From: Bythopirellula sp.
GTDB taxonomy: Bacteria > Planctomycetota > Planctomycetia > Pirellulales > Lacipirellulaceae
Assembly: GCA_965216565.1 (NCBI GenBank)
Contig: OZ244170.1
Span: forward strand, 1,024,001 to 1,088,000
Direction: 5' to 3'
Length of the DNA: 64,000 nucleotides
Shown here: positions 17,393 to 37,699 of the stretch, one piece after another
How positions within the stretch are numbered: position 1 is the first letter of the stretch
How the letters are laid out: the number at the start of each line of letters is the position of its first letter
Program-made: the position numbers and the translations under genes
Notes under the pieces: generated by a model
Seen by the model: only the letters and a program-made list of their open reading frames with translations
Told to the model about the DNA's origin: nothing
Databases searched by the model: none

Positions 17393-17659
17393 TTACGACG
17401 ATTCGATCTTTGCCGAGAACTTTGACATTTCCCTAGAAGCTGATGTAGATTCATCCGGTCGACTATCGCACAAGTATCGATCGGGGACATAGAAATACTC
17501 GATCCACTCAAGCTCAGCATCACTCCAGAATTCCTCGTCTAGGCCGACAGGGCATCCGGCAGCCTCCCATTTTAGGTAGGCGATCTCTTGGACTTGGCTA
17601 CGCGCAATCTCAAGTTCTTCAGGAGTTAGAATCAAGTCTTCGAGCGATACGATGTCCAC
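17393..17659 (-). CDS. DUF2934 domain protein
   Basis: IAYLKWEAAGCPVGLDEEFWSDAE motif; RBS gagga; last gene of the USP operon. Confidence 0.8.
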   Translation of the reverse strand: MDIVSLEDLILTPEELEIARSQVQEIAYLKWEAAGCPVGLDEEFWSDAELEWIEYFYVPDRYLCDSRPDESTSASREMSKFSAKIESS

Positions 17660-17691
17660 GTCTGTTCCTCACAATCTCGAAACCTTACGCC

Positions 17692-18519
17692 TTATTGAGC
17701 TAGAAAAAGAGGTCTATCTGCGTGCTGCACGGTATGCAGCATTGTTTCCCCAAATATTCTTCGCAAGATTAGGTTCCTATTACTGTTTCCCATCACTATT
17801 AGGTCAGCGTTCCAGTCGTTGGCATACGGCAGCAAGCTTCGCTTTGCAGATGAAGGTTCGTAGTCGGAATCAACACTGAAGCCGTGGGACCGGAGATAAT
17901 TCACTGCATCGCCGAGGAGTGATCTGGCAGTCGCCTGGGAGTGCTCGAAGGTTACCACTCGCAAATTCGCATCTGGCCAGAGCCGTAACTGAGCAAAACG
18001 CTTCATCGCTTTTGCAGATTCCATCGATCCGCTGTAGGCAATTAGTACATTGTTAATTCTCCTATGCTTCGGCGAGACAGTTATCAATGGACGCACACCT
18101 GCCTGGACTAGCCGAATTAGTTCGGCTGGGGGTTCATCGACGACACCATGTTCAAACAGATGCCCAAGTCCGCAAACAATAAGATCATGATAACGAGCTG
18201 CATCAGACATGCATTGGTAAGGATCACCTTCTGGGTTATTGATCGAGTGTTCGATCGCTGCCCGGGTAGCGGAATTACCAAATTCCTTAGTGACTTCTAC
18301 GATAATCTTCTTGGCTTTAGCAATTCGGTGGGCCCTCAGGTCAGCAGCTGCCGAGCCACCACCTACCGGCACAGGTCCCGTGGCACCAATCCTTTCTCGA
18401 TCGAGTATGCATAGACCTGTTAGCGATGAACGCTGCGCTCGAGCAATGTCAATCGCCATTAGGGTGGCGGCTGAGGCGTATGTTTGATCACCAAGACCTA
18501 CAAGTATGCGACGAATCAT
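17692..18519 (-). CDS. Universal stress protein, tandem domains
   Basis: RILVGL and NVLIAYSGS...ADLIVMG...FGET...RPLFL. Confidence 0.9.
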   Translation of the reverse strand: MIRRILVGLGDQTYASAATLMAIDIARAQRSSLTGLCILDRERIGATGPVPVGGGSAAADLRAHRIAKAKKIIVEVTKEFGNSATRAAIEHSINNPEGDPYQCMSDAARYHDLIVCGLGHLFEHGVVDEPPAELIRLVQAGVRPLITVSPKHRRINNVLIAYSGSMESAKAMKRFAQLRLWPDANLRVVTFEHSQATARSLLGDAVNYLRSHGFSVDSDYEPSSAKRSLLPYANDWNADLIVMGNSNRNLILRRIFGETMLHTVQHADRPLFLAQ

Positions 18520-18985
18520 TCTTGTTCTCCTTTCGATCTTGCCAGCATGTTCCGCGATATTCTTTGAGCACGAGGACCGGACAATGGGCTAGACGAACAA
18601 CTTTCTCGGTAACCGAGCCTAACAGAAGACGCCTCATACCTGTCCGCCCATGGGAGGGGATTACGATGGCATCAGCCCCGATTTGTTTGGCAAATTCAGC
18701 GATTTCATTTCCTGGGTCTCCAAATTCCACATGGAATGATACTTCCCGAAACCTATCGGACCCCAGAGACTTCTGGTAGTACGCTTCTACATTCTTCCGT
18801 CTTTCATCTATTGGCTTCGCATCCCACATGGCAGCTGGAGAAGTGACTGCTAAATCCTGGTCAATGTGGACGACATGAACATCATGTGGTGTAGATGCCA
18901 ACTTGAGGGCCGTCTTAATCGCACCCGCCGAGGCCTTGCCAAAGTCGATCGGTACGAGCAGTTTCTTATCGGTAAACCAACTCAT
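18488..18985 (-). CDS. Universal stress protein
   Basis: LLVPIDF ... SHGRTGMRRLLLGSVTEKVVRLAHCPVLV. Confidence 0.93.
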   Translation of the reverse strand: MSWFTDKKLLVPIDFGKASAGAIKTALKLASTPHDVHVVHIDQDLAVTSPAAMWDAKPIDERRKNVEAYYQKSLGSDRFREVSFHVEFGDPGNEIAEFAKQIGADAIVIPSHGRTGMRRLLLGSVTEKVVRLAHCPVLVLKEYRGTCWQDRKENKNDSSHTCRSW

Positions 18986-19503
18986 TGTGGCGCACCTTTC
19001 AAAATAGAAGTGTGATGATCTGCGTCAACAATCGTCTGCAAAATATCCAGAGCGCTTACCACGCCTATTGGGCATGCACGTTCGTCCACAACGATTAGGC
19101 GATGAATGTTTTCTCCGCTGATGTATCTTGCAGCGTCGATCACTGATTGTTCGACCCCGATGGTTTGGACTGCAGAGCTCATGTGCCTTTCGACCCGGTC
19201 CTCTGGGACTACTTCAATCTGAAGCGATCCATAGGCACCTTCATGTGAGACTTCAACTTCATTGGCAACTGACGAATAGCCATCTCCCTGCGAGTTCCGA
19301 TAGCATCTCCTTATGATATCTGAGTTGCTCACGACACCCACGCATTTCCCCATCTCATCGATCACCGGGAGTCCGCTGATGTCGTGCTCTACCAGTAGTT
19401 TTTCGGCCTCTACGATCGTCGCATTCTTGGAAACCGACCAGATCTGCAGTGACATGATGTCTTTTACCTTGTACTCATGTAGTTTCTCGAAAGTGTCGTT
19501 CAT
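18982..19503 (-). CDS. CBS domain pair protein
   Basis: VKDIMS, ISGLPVID...VGVVS, IHRLIVVD...IGVVSALDI; start at 19503 overlaps the upstream stop (ATGA). Confidence 0.9.
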   Translation of the reverse strand: MNDTFEKLHEYKVKDIMSLQIWSVSKNATIVEAEKLLVEHDISGLPVIDEMGKCVGVVSNSDIIRRCYRNSQGDGYSSVANEVEVSHEGAYGSLQIEVVPEDRVERHMSSAVQTIGVEQSVIDAARYISGENIHRLIVVDERACPIGVVSALDILQTIVDADHHTSILKGAPQ

Positions 19504-19982
19504 CTTTCGGCCACACTTTCTGGTTGAGTACCTTCTGCCAGCAAGGGACTGGAGTTGGCCCGAACAGTAAGCACTGGGCAAGATGCTGTCCTGACAATCT
19601 CTTCGGCAACGCTTCCCAATAGAAGTTTACTAATGCCAGAGACTCCATGAGTGCCAATCACAATCAAATCAGCGTGTTTCCTCTGAGAAAACTTGACGAT
19701 TTCGTCCGCCGCTTCACCTCTAAGAAAGTGGTGCTCGAAGTTAACTCTTGCAGACTGAGGCTTGACTCTCTCCAGCTTTTCCAGTTGCTCCTGGGCAATT
19801 CGATCTATCTGTGGGAGGTAGCCATACCCCACATCTCCTAACACCAGCCCCGGAGTCTCATCATCCACATGCACGATCAGCAATCGGGCCTTCTCCACAG
19901 CAGCAAATGCCGTCGCGTATTGCAGAGCGGCTACACTGCACTGTGAGAAGTCTGTGGCATAGATGATCGTATCGATATTCAT
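19500..19982 (-). CDS. Universal stress protein
   Basis: IIYATDFS ... GTHGVSGISKLLLGSVAEEIVRTASCPVL. Confidence 0.93.
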   Translation of the reverse strand: MNIDTIIYATDFSQCSVAALQYATAFAAVEKARLLIVHVDDETPGLVLGDVGYGYLPQIDRIAQEQLEKLERVKPQSARVNFEHHFLRGEAADEIVKFSQRKHADLIVIGTHGVSGISKLLLGSVAEEIVRTASCPVLTVRANSSPLLAEGTQPESVAER

Positions 19983-20012
19983 TGATCCGATTGGCTAGAG
20001 ATACCGTTCCTG

Positions 20013-20534
20013 CTAATGTTGACTGAACCTCGACATGGCTGGACTGATGGGGGTTTGATTCGACTTTTTCGATGTTTCTTTGCTGTCTCCATGCTTTATC
20101 GGCGACTTAACTGTGAGGACGGGGCATGAAGCCTTCCGCAAGACGCCTTCGGCGATACTACCCATCAGCATTCGCGATAGCCCTGTGCGACCATGAGTTC
20201 CCATAACGATTAAATCAACTTTTTCTCGTTCTGCAAACTCGACGATTTGAGATACAGCCGCTCCGGTTAGGTAGTGCCTTTGCACTCGAACACCCTCTCG
20301 TGTTGGTTTTATGTTTTCAAGCTGCTTTCGCATCACTTGCTCGAGTGAATCTGGAACATCTTCTGCGTAAGCAAAGCTACCATAGCCCCCAAGATAGGAC
20401 TGTGTGTCTTCGGCAGCATGTACGATAAATAAAGTTGCACCTGTTTCGGCCGCAAGAGCTGATGCATAGCCCAGAGCCGCGTTACTCGAGTGTGAAAAAT
20501 CTGTTGGGCATAGAATTGATTTAATTCTCATCAT
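20013..20534 (-). CDS. Universal stress protein
   Basis: ILCPTDFS ... GTHGRTGLSRMLMGSIAEGVLRKASCPVL. Confidence 0.93.
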   Translation of the reverse strand: MMRIKSILCPTDFSHSSNAALGYASALAAETGATLFIVHAAEDTQSYLGGYGSFAYAEDVPDSLEQVMRKQLENIKPTREGVRVQRHYLTGAAVSQIVEFAEREKVDLIVMGTHGRTGLSRMLMGSIAEGVLRKASCPVLTVKSPIKHGDSKETSKKSNQTPISPAMSRFSQH

Positions 20535-20610
20535 AAGCTCCTTTTGATCTCATCAGAAAGCCTCGCTGCCGCGCTTTACCGTTGAACACGAGTGCAGCAA
20601 CTAAAACATC

Positions 20611-20626
20611 CGCAACTCGTGTGCCA
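20611..20626 (-). promoter_or_regulatory. sigma54 -24/-12 promoter for the USP/CBS operon
   Basis: TGGCAC-ACGAG-TTGCG on the minus strand, ~80 bp upstream of 20534. Confidence 0.85.
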
Positions 20627-20708
20627 TAGTGAAAGACGAACAAGACGAGTCTAGTTGCCGTGAGCATATTCCCTGGCAATAGGAACTGTGCCAGATGGGA
20701 GTGCCCAC

Positions 20709-20724
20709 TGAGCCCTAACGCACA
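20709..20724. promoter_or_regulatory. Candidate enhancer (UAS), copy 1
   Basis: TGAGCC-CTAA-CGCACA between divergent sigma54 promoters. Confidence 0.5.
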
Positions 20725-20790
20725 CACCTGGAGAGGTAGTCACCAGCGACATGCTCCGGTTTTCCGAGAAGCTTCACTTGCTGAGTAGCT

Positions 20791-20806
20791 TGGCACGGAT
20801 CGTGCT
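20791..20806 (+). promoter_or_regulatory. sigma54 -24/-12 promoter
   Basis: TGGCAC-GGATC-GTGCT, 55 bp upstream of the ATG at 20862. Confidence 0.75.
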
Positions 20807-20861
20807 GCCATGTGCGGCAGGTGTTTGTACAGCAAGTTTCAAACCGGAAAGGAGAATCGAC

Positions 20862-21077
20862 ATGGCTACCGTAGATTCTGGGCAACATTGCCGCATCGTC
20901 GGTAAATCGCCGGGCAAGTCGGCAGAGAATGGGCCTATCAGACAACGAAACTTCTTGATTGATGAGGACCTGCACGCCGGTTACCTAATTCCGGCGATTC
21001 TAACTGGAATCATACTGTTTGGATTGCTGTCGATGGTATTTAGCGTTTTGGCAATTCTGTTAACGGGGTCTCAGTAG
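20862..21077 (+). CDS. Small (71 aa) C-terminally membrane-anchored hypothetical protein
   Basis: Strong RBS gaaaggag, own sigma54 promoter, one hydrophobic helix. Confidence 0.7.
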   Translation: MATVDSGQHCRIVGKSPGKSAENGPIRQRNFLIDEDLHAGYLIPAILTGIILFGLLSMVFSVLAILLTGSQ

Positions 21078-21182: not shown

Positions 21183-21614
21183 CTACTTTACCAGCAAGAT
21201 AGGGCATTGGCTCATGATAGAAACTTGGTAGCTAAGAGTGGCCCAGCCGTGAGGTTGTTCATCAAGATTTACCCTATGAGAGCTAAGCACGATAAGATCA
21301 AACTCTTTTTGCAATGCGTAACTAACGATAGCATGGGCCCGCTTGCCCATCACAATCTTCTCATCAACGCGAACACCCGCCTGTTCAAAACCTTCCGCCC
21401 GACTGGCCAGGTTGGTACGTGCTTGCTGTTTCAATTTGTCGTAGAAAAGCAGTATCTCCGTATCATCGTCAGCGTACTCAATGGCCTCAATCACATGCAA
21501 TAGTGTTACACAGGAATGATTCTGCTTAGCGACTTTCAGGGCACATCTCAAAGCAGCCTGATTCTTTGCAGTAAAATCAAGAGGCAATAGAATCTTTTGG
21601 AACATGAGATTCAT
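21183..21614 (-). CDS. Universal stress protein
   Basis: FQKILLPLDFT ... FDLIVLSSH ... CPILLVK. Confidence 0.9.
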   Translation of the reverse strand: MNLMFQKILLPLDFTAKNQAALRCALKVAKQNHSCVTLLHVIEAIEYADDDTEILLFYDKLKQQARTNLASRAEGFEQAGVRVDEKIVMGKRAHAIVSYALQKEFDLIVLSSHRVNLDEQPHGWATLSYQVSIMSQCPILLVK

Positions 21615-21664: not shown

Positions 21665-21680
21665 GGCAAACAATGTGCCG
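21665..21680 (-). promoter_or_regulatory. sigma54 -24/-12 promoter
   Basis: CGGCAC-ATTGT-TTGCC on the minus strand upstream of the USP gene. Confidence 0.72.
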
Positions 21681-21730
21681 ATTGTCTTGGCCTTCTGCAT
21701 TCGGCTCCCAGTCCTGGCTAGCTCTATGAG

Positions 21731-21746
21731 TGTGCGAGTTCGCTCA
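21731..21746. promoter_or_regulatory. Candidate enhancer (UAS), copy 2
   Basis: TGTGCG-AGTT-CGCTCA. Confidence 0.55.
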
Positions 21747-21840
21747 GTCTGTGCGGACAACGTGAAGGCTAGACAAACAATGTTGTGAATTCACGTAGCA
21801 AAGTGCGCGGAACAAATGCTGGTATTCTCTGCGAAGGCAT

Positions 21841-21856
21841 TGGCATGCATCTTGCA
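21841..21856 (+). promoter_or_regulatory. sigma54 -24/-12 promoter
   Basis: TGGCAT-GCATC-TTGCA. Confidence 0.85.
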
Positions 21857-22797: not shown

Positions 22798-24624
22798 ATG
22801 GAAAGCCCCAAGTGGGAACGTACTGAATCTCTGGAGCGAGAGTTTGGACGCATTCTTGAGGATTCGTTAAACGAGATCTTTATCTTCGATGCCGATTCGC
22901 TCAAGTTTATTCTTGTAAACCGAGGAGCCAGAGAGAATCTCGGCTTCACGATCGAGGAACTTCAGAACCTCACACCGGTTGACATCAAGCCGGAGTTCTC
23001 GCGAGTGGCATTCGAAGAGTTGATATCGCCGCTCCGCGAAGGTCGCGAAGAGTCAATATGTTTCAACACTGTGCACAGCCGTAAAAGTGGCTCTCAATAC
23101 AATGTAGAGGTGCATTTGCAGCTTGCCACATTTCACGACACCCCTGTATTCATAGCGATTATTCTCGATACGACAGATCGCTTGCGAGCTGAAGGTGAGC
23201 TACGAGTTCGCAATCGTGCCATCGAATCGGTTGGAGTGGGAATCGTTATTACCGATGCAACTCTGTCTGAGATGCCTATTGTCTATTGCAATTTGGCATT
23301 TGAGCAGATTACTGGTTATTCCAAACATGAGATCGTCGGACATAATTGCCGATTTCTACAGCAAGACGACCGTAACCAAGAGGCGCGTCATGCCATTCGA
23401 GAAGCTGTGATAGAAGGCCGCGGTTGCCAAACCTTGATTCGCAACTATCGTAAAAATGGCGAAATGTTTTGGAACAACCTCAGGATTTCACCTGTGAGAA
23501 ATCCTGATGGAGCCGTGACGCACTTCGTAGGTCTCACTGATGATGTAACGCATCGAATTCTGGCGGAAGATGATAAAAAGGATCGGGAAGCTCGACTTGC
23601 GGCGATACTAGACACGGCAGTCGAGGCGATCATCACTATTGACGATAAAGGCATTTGCGAGTCGATCAACACAGCTGGAGAACGGATGTTCGGCTACTCC
23701 GCGGCCGAGATTATTGGCAACAACGTGTCGATGCTTATGCCGTCGCCTTATCGTGAAGAGCATGGGCGATATCTTTCCGACTACTTAGAGACTGGTGAGA
23801 AGAAAATCATTGGCGTAGGTCGGGAAGTTGTCGGAAAGCGAAAAGATGGTAGTGAATTTCCAATTCACCTCTCGGTGAGTGAAGTTCATCTCAAGGAACG
23901 CAGGATCTTTACTGGTATTATTCAGGACATTAGCCAGCGCAAAGCGGCCCAGGTGCGATTGGTTCAGGCGGAAAGGCTTGCGGTGCTGGGCGAGGCGATG
24001 GCGCGTTTGGCGCATGAAGGTCGAAATTCATTACAACGAATCCAGATTGCCGTGGAAACGGCACGAATGTGTGAGCCCTCCTCGGAGATTTTAGCAGCTC
24101 AATTCGACTCGATTGAGAAAGCTAGTGATGGCTTAGATTCATTACTGGAGGAACTCCGCAATTATGCTGCGCCACTGACCCTTGAGAAAACAGAATGTCC
24201 GATCCCAAACGTGTGGCGTTCCGCCTGGCAATCTATCGACTCGCTGCGAGAGGGACGCGACGCTATGCTGGTTGAAGATATTCCAGACGAACAAATACTG
24301 CTTCCTGTCGATAAGTTTCGCTTAGGGCAATTGTTTCGAAACATCTTTGAGAACGCTCTGGCCGCATGCTCTGACCCAGTGGTAATCGTGATTTCAGCTT
24401 CTCATAGCCGCGATCAATGGATGATAAACATCAGAGACAATGGTCCAGGCCTGACAACTGAACAGAGCGAGCGCGTTTTTGAACCTTTTTTCACAACCAA
24501 AACCAAGGGAACTGGTCTCGGCATGGCCATAGCCCGCCGCATCGTGGAAGCCCATGGCGGCTCCATTGCCGTGGCGCGCTCTACGCAACAGGGTGCCGAA
24601 TTTGAAATCGCCCTGCCTCTCTAG
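22798..24624 (+). CDS. Cytoplasmic sensor histidine kinase: PAS, LOV, FixL-like heme PAS, HisKA/HATPase
   Basis: GHNCRFLQ LOV motif; LMPSPYREEH...IIGVGREV FixL-like PAS; AHEGRN H-box; DNGPG, FEPFFTTK and GTGLG boxes; RBS ggagg before 22798. Confidence 0.92.
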   Translation: MESPKWERTESLEREFGRILEDSLNEIFIFDADSLKFILVNRGARENLGFTIEELQNLTPVDIKPEFSRVAFEELISPLREGREESICFNTVHSRKSGSQYNVEVHLQLATFHDTPVFIAIILDTTDRLRAEGELRVRNRAIESVGVGIVITDATLSEMPIVYCNLAFEQITGYSKHEIVGHNCRFLQQDDRNQEARHAIREAVIEGRGCQTLIRNYRKNGEMFWNNLRISPVRNPDGAVTHFVGLTDDVTHRILAEDDKKDREARLAAILDTAVEAIITIDDKGICESINTAGERMFGYSAAEIIGNNVSMLMPSPYREEHGRYLSDYLETGEKKIIGVGREVVGKRKDGSEFPIHLSVSEVHLKERRIFTGIIQDISQRKAAQVRLVQAERLAVLGEAMARLAHEGRNSLQRIQIAVETARMCEPSSEILAAQFDSIEKASDGLDSLLEELRNYAAPLTLEKTECPIPNVWRSAWQSIDSLREGRDAMLVEDIPDEQILLPVDKFRLGQLFRNIFENALAACSDPVVIVISASHSRDQWMINIRDNGPGLTTEQSERVFEPFFTTKTKGTGLGMAIARRIVEAHGGSIAVARSTQQGAEFEIALPL

Positions 24625-24811
24625 CGTAGATTTAACACACTTCCTGTAAGTGCATCACCAGCTGACAAGTGTGCTGATACGCGCGCTCTATTAGTCATGG
24701 CTGCACACAAGCCGAGGGCAGTCTAGCTGCTTTAGCTACGTTGCGGTCTATCTATTTAATAAAAACCCTCGATTGAATCGCATTGCACTGTGGCCCCATC
24801 GTTCCTGGAAC

Positions 24812-24827
24812 TGGCATGAGTATTGCA
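24812..24827 (+). promoter_or_regulatory. sigma54 -24/-12 promoter
   Basis: TGGCAT-GAGTA-TTGCA; weak UAS-like TGTGCT-GATA-CGCGCG at 24670-24685 and an AT-rich tract between them. Confidence 0.85.
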
Positions 24828-24911: not shown

Positions 24912-25184
24912 ATGGCTATTCAACCAATCAATCAACGTGCTGCAAGAACAAGAGAACCAGGCAAAAAATACGTTATACAGAATGATATAGACTGCCCCGT
25001 TGCCGATGCCCTTCGCAGGAATGCCCGTGGCGGAATGTGGTGTGTGCAGTGCGAGTTTAGGGAGGGGCTGGCAATACTATACGGCAAGGTTGCCAGCTAC
25101 TACCTGAAGCAAATCGCGCAGGAGACGGCAAAAAGCGTTGAAGGCGTCGAACTGGTTATCAATAGGGTAAACGTGTCGGTGTGA
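24912..25184 (+). CDS. BON domain protein
   Basis: LYGKVASYYLKQIAQETAKSVEGVELVINRVNV. Confidence 0.85.
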   Translation: MAIQPINQRAARTREPGKKYVIQNDIDCPVADALRRNARGGMWCVQCEFREGLAILYGKVASYYLKQIAQETAKSVEGVELVINRVNVSV

Positions 25185-25297
25185 CGATGTACGTAGGCCC
25201 TGTCGCCAATCTATGCAATATTCGAGCCAGTATGTTTCCAAGGAAGGATTGGTCAATGAGTTAATGAATTGGAAACTACATTGTCAGGGGGAAATAG

Positions 25298-25750
25298 ATG
25301 CCAAAGCACCTCTCAATTCTTATTGTTGAATACGATAACAGAGCAAGAGATGGACTGACGAAAAAGTTCTTGTCTCTGGGAAACCTAGTAGTGGCAGTTT
25401 GCCATCCAAGACTAGCCCTGGAGGCCGCGACGATACACGACTTCGACGCGGCCGTCATTGATCAGTCCCTTCCAGAAATGCAGGGGATAGCGCTGATACC
25501 AAGGCTAAGAGGTTTGGTCGGAGACTTAAAAGTCGTGCTCCTCTCGGGGGATCCCGATGACTTGACCTCCGAAGAAGCTGTCGTGCAAGGAGCCGATGCG
25601 TTTCTGCACAAACCTTGTTTTGTAGATGATGTCGAATCGAGCGTGAGAAAAGTACTGGCAAAGAGGAATCCAGTGGATAGACCACGCTTGCCACAGTTCA
25701 ACGTCCGATTGCTTGCACCGAATGGTCTCACTGATGTAAGAGCAAACTAG
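25298..25750 (+). CDS. Single-domain response regulator (receiver)
   Basis: ILIVE, AVIDQSLPEMQG (Asp), LSG and FLHKP. Confidence 0.85.
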   Translation: MPKHLSILIVEYDNRARDGLTKKFLSLGNLVVAVCHPRLALEAATIHDFDAAVIDQSLPEMQGIALIPRLRGLVGDLKVVLLSGDPDDLTSEEAVVQGADAFLHKPCFVDDVESSVRKVLAKRNPVDRPRLPQFNVRLLAPNGLTDVRAN

Positions 25751-25794: not shown

Positions 25795-25810
25795 TGGTAC
25801 ATGAGTTGCT
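25795..25810 (+). promoter_or_regulatory. sigma54 -24/-12 promoter
   Basis: TGGTAC-ATGAG-TTGCT upstream of the Hsp20 gene. Confidence 0.78.
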
Positions 25811-25922: not shown

Positions 25923-26384
25923 ATGTCTGGGACATTAACCACTCACAGTAGGACACCGCACTCTATAAGGAACGAGCCACGGAATAACTTCTTGGACGAA
26001 ATGGAGAATATGGTCGCAAGACTATGGCACAATGGCGAAGATGGCTGGTTTGGTTCGCATAGCATGCCTTTGGTCGATATTGCCGAATCCGATTCTGCTC
26101 TAGAAATGAAGCTCGACTTACCGGGGGTCGCTCCCAAGGAGATTGACATTCAACTCAACGGCAGCGTGTTAACCATCAGTGGTGAGAGAAAAGAAGAAAA
26201 GGAAGGCAAAAGCAAGGCTTACCACCGAATGGAACGGCGAATTGGAAGTTTTTCTCGTACGTTTACACTCCCATGCCCCGTTGAGGAAGACGAAGTGGTA
26301 GCTGCCTATAAGAGTGGTGTTTTAACAATTACGCTGCCCAAGACCGAGGAGGCGAAGACGCGTAAGATTACAATCAAGTCGTAA
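25923..26384 (+). CDS. Hsp20/alpha-crystallin small heat shock protein
   Basis: DLPGV, LTISGERK, ERRIGSFSRTFTLP and YKSGVLTITLPK; RBS aaggagg. Confidence 0.95.
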   Translation: MSGTLTTHSRTPHSIRNEPRNNFLDEMENMVARLWHNGEDGWFGSHSMPLVDIAESDSALEMKLDLPGVAPKEIDIQLNGSVLTISGERKEEKEGKSKAYHRMERRIGSFSRTFTLPCPVEEDEVVAAYKSGVLTITLPKTEEAKTRKITIKS

Positions 26385-26435: not shown

Positions 26436-26471
26436 AGTCCCGGAGGGGTTTACCCTCCGGGACTTTTCTTT
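26436..26471 (+). terminator. Rho-independent terminator
   Basis: agtcccggaggg-gttta-ccctccgggact followed by a T-rich tract. Confidence 0.85.
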
Positions 26472-28898: not shown

Positions 28899-30256
28899 TA
28901 TTGCAATCCGTTGATCTCGCTCTTTGAAATACTGTACTTTTCTAGCAAACGGTATAGACTTCTTCTACTCACTCCCAGCGCCTTGGCTGAGCGCATCTTG
29001 TTACCGTTTTCTTGCTGCATTGCCTGAACTACTCTGGCACGTGTTAATGTTGCTAAGTCAACTTCGGAATCGAGCACCGCATGATTGGGCGATGTGGTAG
29101 AGCCAAGCACTTCAGGTGGCAGATTCTCTTTTCTTAGCACTTCGTCCTCGGCTAACATCTTGGCCCGTTCGATAGCGTTAATGAGCTGCCTCACGTTTCC
29201 AGGCCACGCATACTGGGCAATAGTTTCCCGACAATCGGGTTCATATTCCCAGCCTGCCCCGGCAAAGTGGTCCGCCAACAGAAGGCGATCGTCGCCTCGC
29301 TCTCGCAAGGGAGGTAGCACGATCGTCATAATATTGATTCTGTAGAACAGATCTTCACGGAATCGCTTGGCTTCGACTTCTCTTGCTAGATCGCGATTGC
29401 TCGCAGCAATGATACGCACGTCGACGCGACGTTCCTTGAGAGAGCCAACACGCCGCAGTGAACCATCTTCGAGGACTCTTAGCAGTTTCGGCTGAAGCGT
29501 CGGTGACAGCTCTCCGATTTCGTCAACAAAGAGAGTGCCTCCGTCGGCCACTTCAAAGAGACCAGGCTTGGCAGTAGTGGCTCCGGTGAATGCGCCTTTC
29601 TCGTGCCCAAACAATTCACTTTCTAGTAGCTGTTCTGGCAATGCCGCACAGTTAACAACAACGAGCGGTTTGTCTGCTCGTGTGCTGGACTCATGAATCG
29701 CACGGGCCACCAGCTCTTTACCGGTCCCACTTTCACCCTGAATCAGAATTGGCTTGTTGCTAGGTGCGGAGCGATCGATGAGCCTAAACACTTCTTGCAT
29801 CGCACGTGAATCACCAACCATGTGGTGAGTGGGGGACGTGTGTTTTACGAGTGCCCGCAACTGGCGGTTTTCCTTACGGATTTTTCCCGATTCAGCCGCC
29901 CTCTGCACGACCGCGTCTAGTTGCTTCATGCGAACAGGCTTTGCTAGGAAATCAAACGCCCCAAGTTTCATAGCTTCGACAGCCTTCTCGATCGTGCCCT
30001 CCCCAGTCAGCAAGACAACTTCCATCTCAGGACTAGCGCTTTTGATTTGCTCCAGAAGTTCAATTCCAGACATGCCGGGCATCACCATATCGAGAATCGC
30101 AACCGTAAACTCACGGCTTTGCATTTGTTCAATTGCGGACTCTGCAGAATCTGCATTGTAGACAGAATGCCCAAGCTGCTTGAAGTAATTGACTAGTCCA
30201 TCGCGAAGTTCATCGTCGTCATCGACGATCAATAATTCCAATTGTGAGTCTGGCAT
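28898..30256 (-). CDS. sigma54-dependent response regulator (NtrC family: REC-AAA+-HTH)
   Basis: LDMVMPG receiver, GESGTGKE, ESELFGHEKGAFTGA, WPGNVRQL and a Fis-type HTH. Confidence 0.96.
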   Translation of the reverse strand: MPDSQLELLIVDDDDELRDGLVNYFKQLGHSVYNADSAESAIEQMQSREFTVAILDMVMPGMSGIELLEQIKSASPEMEVVLLTGEGTIEKAVEAMKLGAFDFLAKPVRMKQLDAVVQRAAESGKIRKENRQLRALVKHTSPTHHMVGDSRAMQEVFRLIDRSAPSNKPILIQGESGTGKELVARAIHESSTRADKPLVVVNCAALPEQLLESELFGHEKGAFTGATTAKPGLFEVADGGTLFVDEIGELSPTLQPKLLRVLEDGSLRRVGSLKERRVDVRIIAASNRDLAREVEAKRFREDLFYRINIMTIVLPPLRERGDDRLLLADHFAGAGWEYEPDCRETIAQYAWPGNVRQLINAIERAKMLAEDEVLRKENLPPEVLGSTTSPNHAVLDSEVDLATLTRARVVQAMQQENGNKMRSAKALGVSRRSLYRLLEKYSISKSEINGLQ

Positions 30257-30290
30257 GACGTTACCTAGAAAGTATCAGTCTTTGAATAGT

Positions 30291-31286
30291 TCAGCTTTGC
30301 ACAGGTCCGAAGTCTATGTAGGAAGCGATTGTCGATGCATAGTTGGCTCGCTCAAAACTCTTTGGTGAGCCGCATGAATTCCGGCTTAGTTGCCCTCGCA
30401 GCTGAGTTAGGGAGCAGTATTCATTGTAGCTCATCCATTCCAGTAGTTCCGCCCTCACAGTTTCCAAGTATTCCGCGCCATGCTTTAAGAGGGCGGAGGT
30501 CAGCATGACCACATCTGCTCCTACCGAGACGGCTTTAATCGCATCGATTCCGCTATGGATTCCAGACGAAGCGGCAAGCGAGCAGTGAGGAAGCTGGTCT
30601 CGCAAGATACCAATCCAGCGCAGCGGCAAACGATTGTCGCCAGGGCGACTCAATTCGAGATGAGAGTCGATGCTATGCTCTTTCAGGTTTACTTCAGGCT
30701 CAAGAAATCGATTGAACAGGACCAAGCCGTCCGCCCCCGCCTCAACGACTTGCCGTGCAAAGTAGGGCAAAGAAGAAAAATGGGGACCGATTTTCACCGA
30801 AATGGGGATCTGCAGTCGCTTTCGGACAGCCGCAATCACATCAAGATACTGGGCTTCAACTTGTTGTCCTGAGGTCCCAGGATCAATCGGCACGAAGTGA
30901 ATATTAAGTTCCAATGCAGAAGCCCCGGCGTCGGCGATTTGTTGGGCATACTCAGTCCATCCATCAGAGTTCTTTCCATTGATGCTCGCAATGATGGGCA
31001 TGGAGACGGCCTGACGAGCATGTTCAATGAGCTTGGGATAACAGTCGGCACCCCTATTGTAGGGCCTTAGATACGGAAAGCCTGCCAAGTCTTTGGGCGT
31101 AGGCGTCTCAGTACTTTCCCGTAAGATCTGCTCCTCGAAAAGGGAAGGTAAGACGGCCGCCCCTGCTCCCGAAGCTTCCAATCGCCGAAGCACATCCGGT
31201 TGTCCGGTGCAAGGAGATGCAGATGCAATAAGTGGACTCGTGAGGCGTAGACCCAGGTAATCCGCACTTAGATTGACTTTCTTCAT
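30291..31286 (-). CDS. Dihydroorotate dehydrogenase-like flavoprotein
   Basis: YLGLRLTSPLIASASP, VLPSLFEEQI, GLVLFNRF and FERANY. Confidence 0.88.
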   Translation of the reverse strand: MKKVNLSADYLGLRLTSPLIASASPCTGQPDVLRRLEASGAGAAVLPSLFEEQILRESTETPTPKDLAGFPYLRPYNRGADCYPKLIEHARQAVSMPIIASINGKNSDGWTEYAQQIADAGASALELNIHFVPIDPGTSGQQVEAQYLDVIAAVRKRLQIPISVKIGPHFSSLPYFARQVVEAGADGLVLFNRFLEPEVNLKEHSIDSHLELSRPGDNRLPLRWIGILRDQLPHCSLAASSGIHSGIDAIKAVSVGADVVMLTSALLKHGAEYLETVRAELLEWMSYNEYCSLTQLRGQLSRNSCGSPKSFERANYASTIASYIDFGPVQS

Positions 31287-31327: not shown

Positions 31328-31343
31328 TGCAATTCGAATGCCA
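31328..31343 (-). promoter_or_regulatory. sigma54 -24/-12 promoter
   Basis: TGGCAT-TCGAA-TTGCA on the minus strand. Confidence 0.85.
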
Positions 31344-31437
31344 AGCACATCAGGCAACGCACTTGACTGTTTTGGTACTGCACGTCCCACAACAACGAGT
31401 CCGGTAAAAATGGTCGCTGTCACGTGCAGACTCACGA

Positions 31438-31453
31438 AGTGCGTTTTCGCACA
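31438..31453. promoter_or_regulatory. Candidate enhancer (UAS), copy 3
   Basis: AGTGCG-TTTT-CGCACA. Confidence 0.55.
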
Positions 31454-31516
31454 CCCGCACACATCCAGGGAATCTCGACGCCGGGCAGAATCTGTTTCAT
31501 CCGTAGGGTAGGACTT

Positions 31517-31532
31517 TGGCACAACCCTTGCG
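31517..31532 (+). promoter_or_regulatory. sigma54 -24/-12 promoter
   Basis: TGGCAC-AACCC-TTGCG. Confidence 0.85.
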
Positions 31533-31584: not shown

Positions 31585-32031
31585 ATGTCCAAAACCAATA
31601 GAGACTCTTCGCTTGCAGAACTCATGAAATCCGAGCACGAGGAAATTGCTCGTGAAGTACAAGCGACCCGAGAAGAACTTGAATCAGCCAGCTGCCAGAG
31701 AAACTGTATTAATGACCAGCTGATTCAACTGTCCGAGCTGATCGAGTCCCACTTCAGGCACGAAGAGCAAGGAGGCTACATGGCCGAGGCACTGGTACGG
31801 GCACCTCAACTGCGTCCCCGGGCAGAGGCCCTTCAAAAACAGCATGAGCAGCTTCAAGAAGCAATCGACAAATTGCAACTCTTAGTGAATTCCGGAGTTG
31901 AATCAGCTTCTTGGTGGGACCAAATCCGCAACGATTTTCAACATTTTGCATCACAGTTGACAGAACACGAACACTGCGAAACAAAGCTCGTGCAAGAGGC
32001 TTACAACTTGGACATAGGGGGTGGAGACTAG
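31585..32031 (+). CDS. Hemerythrin (HHE) domain protein
   Basis: EH, HFRHEE, QH and HEHCE spacing of an HHE cation-binding four-helix bundle. Confidence 0.85.
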   Translation: MSKTNRDSSLAELMKSEHEEIAREVQATREELESASCQRNCINDQLIQLSELIESHFRHEEQGGYMAEALVRAPQLRPRAEALQKQHEQLQEAIDKLQLLVNSGVESASWWDQIRNDFQHFASQLTEHEHCETKLVQEAYNLDIGGGD

Positions 32032-32230: not shown

Positions 32231-32800
32231 ATGAATCCCATGATCGACTACTCAACCATTCGCGTCTCAAAACTTCAGCAACTCTGCAAGGCTGGGGCAA
32301 TCAACTTGATCGACGTCCGGACACCAGTAGAGTTCCGAGAGATTCATACTGATTGCGCGCGCAATGTTCCCTTGGACAAACTATCAAGAGAATTATCTAG
32401 CAGTCTATGGAACGGCACGCACGCCCAGCCGCTTTATGTCATGTGCAACAGCGGAAATCGCTCGGCGAAGGCCTGCCAAGAACTTGCTAGTGCCGGTCGT
32501 GAGGACGTCTTCGACGTAGAAGGTGGCTTACAGGCGTGGATTGATACTGGACTTCCAGTGATTCGTGGCAAGAAGGCAGTCTCGCTGGAGAGACAAGTTC
32601 GAATTGTTGCCGGAGCCATTGTGCTGGTGGGAGCAATTCTGGCGATGGCCGTTCATCCCTACTTCGCCGGCATATCGGCTTTTGTAGGTGCTGGCCTCAT
32701 GTTCGCCGGGATTACCGACACCTGTGGCATGGCAATGATGCTGGCCAAAATGCCCTGGAATCAAGTGACAGATGAGACACCCACATGCTCTGTTGATTGA
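32231..32800 (+). CDS. Rhodanese-DUF2892 membrane sulfurtransferase (YgaP-like)
   Basis: IDVRTPVEF, CNSGNRS, SLERQVRIVAG and FAGITDTCGMAMMLAKMPWN. Confidence 0.92.
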   Translation: MNPMIDYSTIRVSKLQQLCKAGAINLIDVRTPVEFREIHTDCARNVPLDKLSRELSSSLWNGTHAQPLYVMCNSGNRSAKACQELASAGREDVFDVEGGLQAWIDTGLPVIRGKKAVSLERQVRIVAGAIVLVGAILAMAVHPYFAGISAFVGAGLMFAGITDTCGMAMMLAKMPWNQVTDETPTCSVD

Positions 32801-32812
32801 TGGGATGAGACA

Positions 32813-33703
32813 ATGCCGCTAGTCATATTCGGAGCCCTAATCGTTGGCCTAACCCTCGGTATGCTTGGCTCAGGAGGATCAGCCATTACTGTTCCCGTGT
32901 TGATTTACATTGTTGGGCATGGAACAAAGGAAGCCATTACTGAATCGATGGCCATTGTGGGCCTGATATCGCTTGCTGCAGCGTTGCCCTATGCCCGTTC
33001 GCATCAGGTCGACTGGAGGACAGCCTTGTTCTTTGGACTACCCGGCGTGTTGGGGACTTTACTTGGAGCTTGGCTGGGAGGTCTTTCGCCAGACGCGTTG
33101 CAACTGGTCGTCTTCGGAATTGTGCTACTGCTGGCAGCTGGAGTCATGTTCATTCAGCCGCACAGTGCGAAATCGCACACTCACGTGGCAAGTAGCGAGC
33201 AGAAGGGCACAGCTGTACTGAAAATTGGTATTGAGGGAACGACCGTAGGCATTGTTACCGGTTTCGTTGGTGTTGGTGGCGGATTCTTGATTGTTCCTGC
33301 ACTGGTCCTATTAGGCAAATTACCAATGCGTCGGGCAATTGGTACCAGTCTGGTGATTATTGCAGCCAAAGCCGCCTTGGGCTTTGCCAAGTATGAGCTA
33401 CATCTTCTCGACAACAATCTTACAGCCGACTTTGGCACAGTTTTAGCTTTTGTAGTACTAGGAATCTTCGGAAGTGTGATCGGCCGTTCGATCAACGTAA
33501 GAATGAATCAACAAACACTGCATAGAGCGTTTGCATCCTTTTTAATTCTCCTAGGTGGTTTTGTGATTGTAAATGAAGGCAGCAAACTGATTGCGACTTA
33601 CCCAACTGATCAACCAGTACGACAAAGCCAATCAACAAAACAAACTATGGATATCACAGCACATGTAGCGGAGAAGAATGATGTTTCTCAAATACTTCTA
33701 TGA
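32813..33703 (+). CDS. TauE/SafE sulfite exporter family protein
   Basis: LGSGGSAITVP, GVGGGFLIVPAL and AIGTSL. Confidence 0.92.
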   Translation: MPLVIFGALIVGLTLGMLGSGGSAITVPVLIYIVGHGTKEAITESMAIVGLISLAAALPYARSHQVDWRTALFFGLPGVLGTLLGAWLGGLSPDALQLVVFGIVLLLAAGVMFIQPHSAKSHTHVASSEQKGTAVLKIGIEGTTVGIVTGFVGVGGGFLIVPALVLLGKLPMRRAIGTSLVIIAAKAALGFAKYELHLLDNNLTADFGTVLAFVVLGIFGSVIGRSINVRMNQQTLHRAFASFLILLGGFVIVNEGSKLIATYPTDQPVRQSQSTKQTMDITAHVAEKNDVSQILL

Positions 33704-35108
33704 CGACGCCCTGGCCCACGCTTCCTATATGGTTGGCTGCCAGCAAAGCCAGGTAGCCATCGTCGTCGATCCAGGACGAGACATCGAGCAATACCTCGCC
33801 ATGGCCAACCGCGAGCAAGTAACACTTGTGGCGGTTGCTGAAACACATATCCACGCCGACTTTGTCTCAGGCGCACTTGAGCTAGCCGATCGGGTCGGAG
33901 CGAAGCTTTACCTGTCCGATGCAGGACCGTCTGAATGGAAATACCAATTTGCTGATGACTACGAACATCAGTTGATCGTAGATGGAGATTCATTCGCCGT
34001 CGGCAAAATCAAGTTCGATGTCATGCACACACCTGGGCATACTCCTGAGAGTCTTTCATTCTTGCTCACAGATTTGGGAGGTGGTGCCGACGTGCCGATG
34101 GGAATTTTCACCGGGGACTTTGTTTTCGTCGGTTCCATTGGCCGACCCGACCTACTAGAAGAGGCAGCCGGCATCGAAAACACTGCTGAACCAGGTGCTA
34201 GAGACCTGTTCCATTCGTTGCATCGTTTTAAGCAATTGCCAGACTTCCTGCAGATATGGCCCGCCCACGGCGCCGGCAGTGCTTGCGGTAAAGGCCTGGG
34301 AGCTATCCCATCGTCGACAGTGGGCTACGAAAAGTTGTTCAACCCCGCCTTTCAATTCGAGGACGAAGACCAGTTTGTTCAATACATTCTCGACGATCAG
34401 CCAGAAGCCCCCAAGTACTTTGCCCTGATGAAGCAAGTGAATAAGGAAGGACCACAAATCCTCGGAGTGATCGGCCTACCGGAGAGGTTGGACTCTGGCA
34501 CGCTTCATTCGCTTCCAACAGGGGTAACCCTTCTCGATCTATCGCCCTCAGGTCAGTTTGCCAAAGGCCATGTACCAGGCTCCATCAACATTCCCTTGTC
34601 GATGCTAGCCGCCTGGGCTGGTTGGATTGTGAATTACGAGAAGCCAGTTTACCTCATCTCTTCCTGCAACCAGTTATCAGATGCAATGCGCATCCTCTGG
34701 AAGATCGGCTTGGAAAGTGTGGCGGGCGTGTTCGATATAGAGGTTCTGAGAAGATGCGGACTGACGACTCAATGCTATGAATCAGCCCTGCCGGAACAAT
34801 TGGCACCACGTATCAGATCGGGAGACCTAGTATTGCTAGATGTTCGTTCCGATGCTGAATGGCAGAGCAGTCAGATTCCCTGTGCCGAGCATCACTTTCT
34901 TGGTCGACTGCCTGAGCGTGTAGGTGTGCTGAGAAAAGACAAAGCCTATGTCACCCAATGCCAAAGCTCTGCACGATCGGCAATTGCAGCGAGCATACTC
35001 CAAGCCGAAGATTTCCGAGTCATCGACATGAGTGGAGGCTTGGCGGAGTGGCATGTAGCCGGTTTGCCAATTAGCACGGAAGAAAACGTAATACCATGTG
35101 GCACATGA
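33678..35108 (+). CDS. MBL-fold persulfide dioxygenase-rhodanese fusion (CstB/Blh-like)
   Basis: ETHIHADF, HTPGHTPE and PAHGAGSACG, then two rhodanese domains (CQSSARS). Confidence 0.9.
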   Translation: MMFLKYFYDDALAHASYMVGCQQSQVAIVVDPGRDIEQYLAMANREQVTLVAVAETHIHADFVSGALELADRVGAKLYLSDAGPSEWKYQFADDYEHQLIVDGDSFAVGKIKFDVMHTPGHTPESLSFLLTDLGGGADVPMGIFTGDFVFVGSIGRPDLLEEAAGIENTAEPGARDLFHSLHRFKQLPDFLQIWPAHGAGSACGKGLGAIPSSTVGYEKLFNPAFQFEDEDQFVQYILDDQPEAPKYFALMKQVNKEGPQILGVIGLPERLDSGTLHSLPTGVTLLDLSPSGQFAKGHVPGSINIPLSMLAAWAGWIVNYEKPVYLISSCNQLSDAMRILWKIGLESVAGVFDIEVLRRCGLTTQCYESALPEQLAPRIRSGDLVLLDVRSDAEWQSSQIPCAEHHFLGRLPERVGVLRKDKAYVTQCQSSARSAIAASILQAEDFRVIDMSGGLAEWHVAGLPISTEENVIPCGT

Positions 35109-35173
35109 TTCTCCACTTACCTGGATAGTTTGTAAGAGTTTTCAGCACCCAACTACTTTGTAAGGAAAAAGCG

Positions 35174-36772
35174 ATGGCCAGCAGAATTGACCTCACCCAG
35201 TATGGCATCCACGTTGAAAATATTCGCCGCAACCTTGCACCTGCAGTTCTCAACGAGCACGGTGTCCTCTTCGATCAATCGCAACTAACCGATTGCGGTG
35301 CGATTGCCACCGACTCAGGAGACAAGAAAGGTCGGAGCCCTAAAGACAAGAGGATTGTCGAAGAATTAAGCAACAAGGACGACATCTGGTGGGGGGATGT
35401 TAACATTCCACTGTCCGAAGAATCTTTTGCCAAGAATCGAGATATTGCGATCAGGTATCTCAACTCCTGCGACCGTCTCTATGTGATGGACGGATTTGCC
35501 GGTTGGGACAGCAAACATCAAATCAAAGTGCGGATTATCTGTTCGAGACCATATCACGCACTATTCATGAACAACATGTTGATTCGGCCAAACCGCCACG
35601 AGTTGGAGAGTTTTGGAGAACCTGATTTCGTAGTCTTCAACGCTGGAAAAGCAGAGGCAGATTCGAAGGTGAATGGGGTCGAAACCAAAACCAGTGTTGC
35701 TCTCAACTTTGGTAGCGGAGAGTTTGTAATATTGGGATCACAGTATGCAGGTGAAATGAAAAAGGGTGTATTCACCATCATGAATTACCTGATGCCCAAA
35801 CGAGATGTGCTATCGATGCATTGTTCGGCGAATCAAGGCCCGCATGGCGACGTGACGCTCTTCTTCGGTTTGTCAGGAACTGGCAAGACGACTCTCTCGG
35901 CCGACCCAGACCGCGATTTGATCGGCGACGATGAACACTGCTGGACCGAGGATGGTATCTTCAACATTGAAGGTGGGTGTTATGCCAAGTGCATCGACCT
36001 CAATGCCCGCGACGAGCCGGAAATTTACTCAGCCATCCGCTATGGAGCTGTATTAGAAAATGTGGTGCTTAATGCACAGACTCGGAAAGTCGATTACCAA
36101 GATGCGTCGAAGACACAAAACACGCGTGCAAGCTACCCAATCGAGTTCATCCCGCACGCCAAGATCCCCTGCATGGGAGGGCATCCTCAGAACATCGTTT
36201 TCCTAACTTGCGATGCGTTCGGAGTTCTTCCGCCCGTCTCGCGATTAACGCCGGAGCAGGCGATGTATCACTTCATCAGTGGCTATACTGCTAAAGTTGC
36301 TGGCACGGAAGTGGGCGTGACAGAACCCGAAGCAACTTTCTCCGCGTGTTTCGGGGCACCTTTTCTGGTTTGGCATCCTGCCAAGTATGCCGAATTGCTT
36401 GCGGCCAAGATGCGTGCTCATCACGCGGACGCCTGGTTGGTCAATACCGGATGGACCGGCGGTGCCTACGGCAATGGGCATCGGATAAGCATTAAGCACA
36501 CCCGGTCGATCATTCGCGCAATTCATAGTGGCCATCTTCGGGAAAGTGATTTTGCAACCGATCCCGTTTTCGGCCTCCAGATTCCTACGCTAGTACCACA
36601 TGTGCCCAGGGAAATCCTAATTCCCAGAACCACGTGGTCTAGTCCCGATGCATTTGACGAAACCTCAGCAAGACTATCCAGATTATTCTGTGAAAACTTT
36701 GAAATGTTCGCGGATGGTGCCGACGAATCGGTTCGCGATGCGGGGCCAGTGATGGCAGTCGCAAGTAGCTAG
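35174..36772 (+). CDS. pckA: Phosphoenolpyruvate carboxykinase (ATP)
   Basis: GRSPKDK, YAGEMKKG, GLSGTGKTTLS, IGDDEH and NIEGGCYAK. Confidence 0.97.
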   Translation: MASRIDLTQYGIHVENIRRNLAPAVLNEHGVLFDQSQLTDCGAIATDSGDKKGRSPKDKRIVEELSNKDDIWWGDVNIPLSEESFAKNRDIAIRYLNSCDRLYVMDGFAGWDSKHQIKVRIICSRPYHALFMNNMLIRPNRHELESFGEPDFVVFNAGKAEADSKVNGVETKTSVALNFGSGEFVILGSQYAGEMKKGVFTIMNYLMPKRDVLSMHCSANQGPHGDVTLFFGLSGTGKTTLSADPDRDLIGDDEHCWTEDGIFNIEGGCYAKCIDLNARDEPEIYSAIRYGAVLENVVLNAQTRKVDYQDASKTQNTRASYPIEFIPHAKIPCMGGHPQNIVFLTCDAFGVLPPVSRLTPEQAMYHFISGYTAKVAGTEVGVTEPEATFSACFGAPFLVWHPAKYAELLAAKMRAHHADAWLVNTGWTGGAYGNGHRISIKHTRSIIRAIHSGHLRESDFATDPVFGLQIPTLVPHVPREILIPRTTWSSPDAFDETSARLSRLFCENFEMFADGADESVRDAGPVMAVASS

Positions 36773-36847
36773 AGTGATCTGAACCTATTAGAGGCAAGGA
36801 GAGTATCCTTTAGTATTCAATCAGATAATCAGGTTAGAAGCTTTCCG

Positions 36848-37699
36848 ATGCCAAGAAAGAAATCCTCTCGCAAGAAGACCTCGCCAAAAGTGAGCTGCAA
36901 GTACACTGTTCACCTGATAGCAGCGGCAGCAGGGGAACTTCTGCACGGGTTGGCAAACGTTGCAATCACTCAGTTCCCTGATATTCAATTTCAAGTTGTC
37001 TTACACTCATTGCAAGACACCATCGAAAAGCTCGAGTCAACGCTAGCAAAGATCGCGGGAGACGAGTCGATTGTTTTACATGCCCTGGCCGATGAATCAG
37101 CAAAACATGCCGTCCGCGAGAAATGCGTGGCCCGACGCATTCCGCAATTTGATGCAACCGGTGAGCTGATGAGATTCTTTTCGAGATGTGTGGGTGCACT
37201 CCCTCGAAACGATGTTTCACGCTTGCACAGAATCGACTCGCATTACACCAAGCGCATCGCTGCGATGGAATTCACAATGGAGCATGACGACAGCCTAGGG
37301 CTAAAGTCACTCAAGGAGGCAGATGTCGTTATTTTAGGTGTTAGTCGTGTGAGCAAAACTCCAGTTGCACTCTACCTTGGCTCAAGGGGATACAAAGTTG
37401 CCAACGTATCGCTGACTCCCGAATGTGGCATCCCCAAGGAACTTGCAAGGCTTTCTAAGAAGAGGGTCGTGGCATTTACTATGCAACCCAAAAGGTTACA
37501 ACAGATTCGCAATGAACGAGCCAACAGTATTGGTCTTAAAAACACTGCCTATAATGATTTGCGGAGCATCACTCATGAGTTAATGGACGTAGAAACGGAG
37601 TACAAAAGTCGTGGTTTCGAGGTTATCGACGTGACGAATCTTACAATAGAACAAACGGCCGCAAAGATCATAAACTTAATTGATTCCAAACACAGATGA
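36848..37699 (+). CDS. PPDK/PEPS regulatory protein (DUF299 kinase/pyrophosphorylase)
   Basis: RIAAMEFTMEHDD, ADVVILGVSRVSKTP and IDVTNLTIEQTA. Confidence 0.88.
   Translation: MPRKKSSRKKTSPKVSCKYTVHLIAAAAGELLHGLANVAITQFPDIQFQVVLHSLQDTIEKLESTLAKIAGDESIVLHALADESAKHAVREKCVARRIPQFDATGELMRFFSRCVGALPRNDVSRLHRIDSHYTKRIAAMEFTMEHDDSLGLKSLKEADVVILGVSRVSKTPVALYLGSRGYKVANVSLTPECGIPKELARLSKKRVVAFTMQPKRLQQIRNERANSIGLKNTAYNDLRSITHELMDVETEYKSRGFEVIDVTNLTIEQTAAKIINLIDSKHR

Follow-up and report, generated by a model that had tools for sequence, protein, structure and literature searches.

A candidate low-oxygen sigma-54 regulon with its own activator and predicted enhancer in a Bythopirellula genome

Which signal, and which regulator, govern a block of stress-protein genes that lies behind a dense set of sigma-54 promoter motifs in a planctomycete? 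The question arises from a 64,000-nucleotide stretch of a Bythopirellula sp. genome (GenBank assembly GCA_965216565.1, contig OZ244170.1, positions 1,024,001 to 1,088,000), referred to here in its entirety as the window, in which genes for five universal stress proteins (USPs), a CBS-pair protein, Hsp20, a BON protein, a hemerythrin and VIT1 share positions 17393–37699 with a sensor kinase, a lone receiver and an NtrC-family activator. An original prediction, made from the sequence alone, described this module as a self-contained sigma-54 regulon of hypoxia/dormancy type carried on a portable island. Our analysis suggests that the block is quite probably a low-oxygen sigma-54 regulon run by its FixL-type kinase and the neighbouring activator, and that it is likely one version of a circuit for responding to oxygen that has already been described in Myxococcus. 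To the earlier reading it adds an enhancer palindrome, a three-way swap of sensors among relatives, and an activator fused to a globin.

The promoters form the starting point of the argument. All eight predicted motifs of the −24/−12 type were recovered at the expected places, each in a spacer, facing a gene and in the correct orientation, with 41–112 bp between motif end and start codon; six of them form three back-to-back pairs with separations of 165, 161 and 174 bp. On the plus strand, motifs precede the gene for a 71-amino-acid protein (20791..20806; score 15.7, predicted transcription start ~20817), a cytidylate kinase-like (CMK-like) gene and probably also the sensor kinase (21841..21856; 16.9), the BON and receiver genes (24812..24827; 16.0), Hsp20 (25795..25810; 13.1) and the hemerythrin gene (31517..31532; 17.1). 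On the minus strand, where the earlier numbers were low-end coordinates and the T of TGG lies at 20626, 21680 and 31343, they precede the USP-CBS operon (20611..20626; 16.7, predicted start ~20600), a separate USP gene (21665..21680; 12.4) and the activator operon (31328..31343; 17.4). Three motifs deviate from consensus, with CGGCAC at 21680, TGGTAC at 25795 and GTGC at 20791. The motif at 21665..21680 occupies the same position in the related genome G009, where the TGGTAC variant also stands ahead of Hsp20, and 16 of 17 related loci have a sigma-54 motif ahead of the activator gene itself or of the operon that contains it.

We scored these sites with a sigma-54 matrix trained on 39 sites, all outside the window, and took expected counts from the genome's other non-coding DNA, a class that is overestimated as a consequence of genes missed by the gene caller. 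At a score of at least 12, the module's spacers (2,555 bp) hold eight sites against 0.37 expected (Poisson p = 7e-9), far from the background density; at a score of 15 there are six against 0.11, and at 10 or above nine, a number reached in none of 2,000 dinucleotide shuffles. The module also accounts for three of the genome's 12 back-to-back sigma-54 pairs, while sigma-70 motifs show no excess, standing at shuffle level or lower. Because their codon use is atypical, most island genes had been overlooked by the initial gene caller, and the module genes were then annotated by hand. An explanation by chance matches can appeal to the sequence as a whole, in which enrichment is modest once coding DNA is included (18 against 9.5 expected at score 10, 34 against 25.5 at score 8), and to two equally strong matches (26786+ and 27975−) inside the gene for a DASS-family transporter, which are probably themselves due to chance. 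Set against the spacer excess, the uniformly correct orientation and the conservation in relatives, chance is scarcely credible as an account of the eight, and we reject it.

Given real promoters, the next question is which activator would serve them. The genome has an intact rpoN and 16 sigma-54 activators. The module encodes one of these itself (28898–30256, minus strand), a REC-AAA+-HTH protein with Walker A and B motifs, GAFTGA and HTH, and so carries its own activator, kinase and receiver, in agreement with its description as self-contained. A palindrome, TGTGCG-N4-CGCACA, lies 58–135 bp upstream of seven of the eight window promoters and is conserved across relatives. The discovery set consisted of 52 promoters picked by eye from 17 genomes, at the loci of 17 activator orthologues. 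The top palindrome found de novo, the dyad GTGC-N6-GCAC, was present in 14 of the 17 genomes and was recovered in six of eight other-family genomes taken alone; a copy stands at 42 of the 52 promoters, in 36 cases 58–150 bp upstream, and widening the matrix by 1 or 2 bp leaves sites in only 2 and 1 of the 17 genomes, respectively. When the matrix was built without the window's genome (G000), seven of eight window promoters scored at least 10, compared with 8 of 735 sigma-54 sites outside. Even with a matrix from the eight other-family loci only, five of the eight (representing three distinct sites) outrank all 735.

Four distinct, unstranded copies account for these matches in the window. One lies mid-spacer in each divergent pair, namely a weak copy at 20708..20725 (score 11.3), the genome's best-scoring copy at 21730..21747 (21.8) and a copy in the hemerythrin/activator spacer at 31437..31454 (16.5); with the palindrome so central, one bound activator would serve two promoters. 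The fourth (24669..24686; 14.7) is 135 bp upstream of the BON promoter, a spacing that is the same in G018, G016 and G009. Rhizobium meliloti has the identical half-sites, TGTGCG and CGCACA, in its DctD enhancer, TGTGCGgnnntCCGCACA, where they are 6 bp apart rather than 4 (available text of PMC11077940), and the window palindrome therefore has the form of an activator site. We regard it as likely to be the enhancer of the module's activator, a prediction that rests on sequence comparison. IHF-like sites between enhancer and promoter gave only loose matches, at four of eight promoters, and were not used as evidence. Of 173 non-coding sigma-54 sites outside the window, just three have the palindrome with them, and the regulon therefore seems to extend hardly at all beyond the block; in G009, a version of the module spanning ~60 kb contains 13 palindrome-promoter pairs scoring above 11.

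The promoters might nonetheless be real but served by another host activator, or persist as silent baggage of an acquired island, as the 15 activators besides the module's own and the low-GC insertion with its broken flanking recombinases (described below) could suggest. We find this very unlikely, as the module genes are all intact, no palindrome was found near sigma-54 sites beside other host activators (7 sites at 5 of the 15 activators; best score 3.1), and the palindrome goes with this activator's clade in different families and with any of three sensor types.

What signal the module's own activator would receive is suggested by the adjacent kinase (22798..24624, plus strand), whose architecture by Pfam and alignment is PAS-LOV-PAS-HisKA (His406)-HATPase. 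The third PAS, which adjoins the kinase region, finds its best matches among FixL heme domains (E = 7e-32), with the HxxY histidine and the IIGxGR arginine aligned. These residues, His322 and Arg342, which we take to be the proximal heme ligand and the distal O2 contact by analogy with FixL, are invariant in six of six kinase orthologues, and the third PAS is likely a heme sensor domain of FixL type, as predicted from these alignments. Of 98 family genomes, 19 have an activator at least 67% identical to the window's. The kinase is present in 17 of these and in none of the remaining 79, a pattern rather than a test, as related genomes are not independent samples; the two genomes of this subclade without it are both 83% complete.

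The LOV domain of the same kinase raises the alternative that LOV drives the regulon, which would then answer to blue light or general stress, with the heme PAS secondary. The domain keeps Cys184 (GxNCRFLQ) and both Asn residues and matches solved LOV domains, and USP, Hsp20 and BON are general stress genes. Its conserved flavin-contact Gln is replaced by Thr (Thr247 in the window) in all three LOV-bearing copies aligned, though LOV domains without the Gln can still signal according to the available text of PMC9098866. The first PAS and LOV are missing from three of the six aligned kinases, whereas the heme PAS is present in all six, and other relatives use globins. We consider a LOV-driven regulon very unlikely, and return to the predicted heme-sensing kinase and its activator.

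If oxygen is the signal, the relatives of this activator might be expected beside other oxygen-related genes. The activator belongs to a well-supported clade (97/97) present in 66 of 98 family genomes and, in a phylum survey that scored seven candidates per genome and is thus an undercount, in at least 14 of 300 genomes, every one of the same class. The first activator tree was made by a quick method and included 39 of 78 unrelated rows. Of the 80 matches listed by a related-locus search of genome contigs, mostly unrelated activators, L047 and L113 belong to the clade. An activator on a contig titled Alcaligenaceae (L048:9977-11386) is sister to the planctomycete clade (100/98) and has no oxygen-related neighbours.

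Beside the orthologues, a cbb3 oxidase, a HemG-type flavodoxin and a hemerythrin recur. A protoglobin kinase is near the activator in six of nine other-family loci outside the window's subclade; at 17 held-out loci, judged by tblastn matches, it stands beside the activator in eight, a FixL-like PAS in four and cbb3 oxidase genes in seven. No protoglobin (PF11563) was found in the window's own genome. The low-oxygen part of the original prediction is supported by the FixL-type heme PAS here and by the globin sensors and cbb3 oxidase beside orthologues; dormancy has no support.

In 19 of the 98 family genomes, the receiver of the activator is replaced by a protoglobin within a single reading frame, and in each of these genomes the fused form is the sole clade copy, never accompanied by the receiver form. 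Examples are L128:9346-10842, L127:9604-11130, L137:9402-10886 and L047:514-2160. Pfam confirmed globin-AAA+-HTH in all four fusions tested, both domains occur in 78 of 120 homologues listed, and an alignment of 14 fusions shows the His and Tyr of the globin without exception. At each of 11 loci of the genus, CBS and/or USP genes lie opposite the fusion, and the palindrome is in the spacer in 10, with weaker sigma-54 motifs. In the L127–L137 spacers upstream of the fused activator, the motif facing BON-CBS-USP is often TGG(T/C)CC-N5-TTGC, a weak variant located ~60 bp from the palindrome and missed by a standard matrix. Public records place the globin-fused form in the cultured Bythopirellula polymerisocia and Posidoniimonas corsicana. 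Neither the globin-AAA+ fusion nor the TGTGCG-N4-CGCACA enhancer turned up in our searches of the open-access literature; supplementary figure S2 of PMC6211767 concerns planctomycete homologues with divergent domain architectures, and these could include the fusion.

On balance, we lean towards a single Planctomycetia clade with its own enhancer that controls an oxygen regulon and whose sensor has taken at least three forms through swapping: a globin kinase, which is probably the ancestral input; a FixL-type kinase, to which the window's version would add a LOV light or redox input; and a globin fused onto the AAA+ domain. Three kinases that combine protoglobin with PAS (and GAF) domains (L016:1233-2837, L144:9304-11355 and L141:9865-11427) could represent steps between the globin sensors and the PAS sensors.

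The same wiring could instead take NO, CO or cellular redox as its main signal. Heme sensors bind NO and CO too. Binding of several gases by heme PAS and globin domains is also a subject of PMC3820574, as far as its available text goes, and the G009 cluster includes a formate/nitrite transporter. The recurrence of cbb3 oxidase, HemG-type flavodoxin and hemerythrin beside orthologues and the retention of the FixL distal arginine argue for oxygen, and we judge another main signal unlikely.

In the oxygen mechanism that we infer, as regards ligand and direction of signalling as much as phosphotransfer, DNA binding and co-induction, a fall in O2 would lead the heme PAS kinase to phosphorylate the neighbouring NtrC-family activator, which would bind TGTGCG-N4-CGCACA and open the eight sigma-54 promoters, that of its own operon included. 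The outputs would be nucleotide-binding stress proteins (five USPs and the CBS protein), Hsp20, BON, hemerythrin, VIT1 and a DHOD-like flavoprotein. The role of phosphate sink would fall to the lone receiver, and in some of the genomes light or flavin redox state may be a further input through LOV. Beyond the limits already given for coding-sequence enrichment, the number of host activators, kinase co-occurrence and gas specificity, several observations weigh against this reading. With the eight-locus matrix, 6 of 735 outside sites beat the palindrome at 20708, and the Hsp20 promoter lacks a good palindrome, 33 of the 735 scoring higher. One palindrome per promoter is usual here, and NmpR, the Myxococcus counterpart discussed below, used two. 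At the 17 held-out Planctomycetia loci, from 14 more distant genomes, the palindrome-promoter pair occurs in only six (against 4 of 256 background windows and, among loci of unrelated activators, 2 of 78), so the palindrome decays or changes with distance. Finally, the search for a cbb3 oxidase in the window's genome did not find ccoO.

How does the module relate to systems already described? NmpRSTU of Myxococcus is a protoglobin kinase relay that leads to an NtrC-like activator and is sigma-54-dependent, autoregulated and hypoxia-induced; NmpR activates CBS, USP, hemerythrin, HemN and cbb3 genes, and the promoter of a CBS gene is hypoxia-induced (PMC11841059, as available). Sigma-54 wiring of a USP/CBS hypoxia set, which the original prediction held to be without precedent, is therefore already known, and has been tested, in that organism. 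In the available text of PMC6211767, nmpSTU homologues were noted in Planctomycetes in 2018, and a survey found USP genes of Planctomycetia enriched for sigma-54 motifs (available text of PMC12316311). The window shares with NmpRSTU a probable heme sensor kinase, an NtrC-like activator, sigma-54 promoters, predicted positive autoregulation and CBS/USP/hemerythrin outputs, and the window's relatives share cbb3 oxidase and P-type ATPase outputs; one of them, G036, shows the full layout of globin kinase, double receiver and hybrid kinase. The window itself, however, uses the PAS-LOV-heme PAS kinase and lacks the protoglobin kinase NmpU, and it has one single receiver and one kinase without the double receiver NmpT or the hybrid kinase NmpS. 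The NmpRSTU box GCGCA-N5-TGCGC has no match in the module with up to one mismatch, and conversely the planctomycete palindrome-promoter pair is present at none of 13 further NmpR-like loci. The window's activator is 38–44% identical over its full length to NmpR-like proteins and has a different recognition helix, and the two fall into separate supported clades. On their orthology the approximately unbiased (AU) test depends on one row, with p = 0.052 when L048 is included and 3e-5 when it is left out, for an NmpR-like set that was chosen by synteny and does not include the M. xanthus protein itself. Judging from these comparisons, the window probably works like NmpRSTU; it departs from it in three defining features, the globin kinase, the relay and the box.

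Other low-oxygen systems resemble the module in part. FixL/FixJ/FixK shares the heme PAS with the same key residues and the microoxic outputs, whereas the module's output is a sigma-54 activator, its kinase has an extra PAS and LOV, and no LuxR-type regulator is present; TTGA-N6-TCAA was not found in the module, where FNR-like matches occur only with two mismatches and nearly all within genes. The DosR regulon of mycobacteria, for which dormancy has been shown, uses GAF heme sensors and a LuxR-type regulator and no sigma-54. It resembles the window in its combination of a heme sensor kinase with USP, CBS and alpha-crystallin outputs, but a GAF heme sensor and a LuxR-type DosR are not part of the module's domain content; its link to USP is cited in the available text of PMC11841059. 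The lxa locus of Burkholderia cenocepacia is a clustered, strain-variable, low-oxygen locus needed for survival without oxygen, and it has outputs similar to the window's, with six USPs, an alpha-crystallin and phospholipid-binding proteins (PMC3721108). It differs in having an FNR-like motif, TGA-N6-TCA, and in not being a predicted island, and the available text of PMC3721108 notes no role for sigma-54.

The genes behind the eight promoters can now be delimited. The predicted outputs were all confirmed by Pfam, and the module holds five of the genome's six USP genes. The leftmost predicted operon (17393..20534, minus strand) runs USP (20013-20534), USP (19500-19982), CBS pair (18982-19503), USP (18488-18985), tandem USP (17692-18519) and DUF2934 (17393-17659), an order partly kept in G018, G016, G011, G024, G004 and G009. 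Divergent from it is the unannotated gene at 20862..21077 (plus strand), whose membrane-type product of 71 amino acids has a hydrophobic C-terminus, matches no Pfam family and is conserved in G004 and G009. The separate USP gene (21183..21614, minus strand) faces away from the cytidylate kinase-like gene (PF13189; 21927..22625, plus strand) that precedes the sensor kinase. On the plus strand follow BON (24912-25184) and the lone receiver (25298-25750), together at 24912..25750, and Hsp20 (25923..26384), the only copy found in the genome, with a terminator-like hairpin (12-bp stem, 26436-26464) downstream. The predicted autoregulated operon (28131..31286, minus strand) comprises the DHOD-like flavoprotein (PRK07565; 30291-31286), the activator and VIT1 (28131-28898), and the hemerythrin-domain gene (31585..32031, plus strand) lies opposite. 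Elsewhere, a strong sigma-54 motif stands ahead of groES-groEL near the activator in G003 (L014:4553, stitched coordinates), and the G009 cluster encodes a USP fused to a type II/IV secretion ATPase (L006:9320-10993).

The supported extent of the regulon is narrower than first proposed. The DASS-family transporter (26701..28134, plus strand) has no sigma-54 motif upstream, and none of the genes at 32231..37699 (plus strand; rhodanese, TauE, MBL-rhodanese, a second pckA and a PPDK regulator) comes with its own promoter motif, no spacer motif being present ahead of the rhodanese, pckA or PPDK regulator genes; we treat the latter stretch as cargo. Rhodanese, TauE and MBL-rhodanese accompany the module in G009 only, and pckA, here the second copy in the genome, was found in none of the related loci examined. 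The genome's third-best palindrome (20.2) lies inside the TauE gene (33163-33180), with a sigma-54 motif ~260 bp downstream at 33433 (13.2) that faces the MBL gene, and a further copy (13.0) lies at 35062. An internal promoter in TauE facing the MBL gene is possible, and we leave those in DASS and TauE unproven.

Is the module, then, a portable island? The window's copy is inserted, as predicted, but the insertion is larger than first described, extending over 41 kb (~15.1–56.1 kb). In nine of 11 relatives, the IrrE-like gene that ends at 15071 is followed by the genes found at 56–58 kb in the window, and in the other two by a gene ~30 kb further on; none of the 11 has the module at this site, and its neighbours vary from genome to genome in relatives. 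GC content is 0.511 in the insertion and 0.55 in its flanks, and by this measure the module ranks among the lowest 3% of 20-kb windows. At the left edge lies a 23-bp palindromic repeat (15109..15131, plus strand) with a copy carrying two mismatches at 56133-56155; it belongs to a REP-like family with 18 genome copies at up to two mismatches and is for that reason not a proven att site. Recombination genes at the edges are broken, with a tyrosine integrase remnant in two pieces (PF00589; 15221..16567, minus strand), a scrap of an insertion-sequence integrase core (PF13683; 16343-16537, plus strand) and, at the right edge, a serine recombinase in two pieces (PF07508 and PF00239; 54265..55952, minus strand). 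No tRNA gene was found in the window, hence no tRNA attachment site. The right half of the insertion (37823-53290) carries genes with no relation to the regulon, for sulfatases, a glycoside hydrolase, DUF1559 proteins and FecR. A mobile cassette is not the whole story, however: with the activator clade in two-thirds of family genomes as counted above, the regulator is characteristic of the family and not a rarely carried cassette, although the window's copy is an inserted one.

For planctomycetes, these results provide a defined candidate oxygen regulon, with a sensor, an activator, predicted start sites and the sequence of an enhancer. Three input designs that converge on one output constitute a natural experiment on signalling polarity: FixL is the active form when O2 is absent, whereas in the model for the globin kinase NmpU activity requires O2 and an inverting relay is needed. 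The globin-AAA+ form, if the interpretation is correct, would be a one-component, heme-gated sigma-54 activator, testable because the cultured B. polymerisocia and P. corsicana carry it. Such a fusion would show ligand binding to heme gating a sigma-54 ATPase directly, and it could serve as a single-gene oxygen switch.

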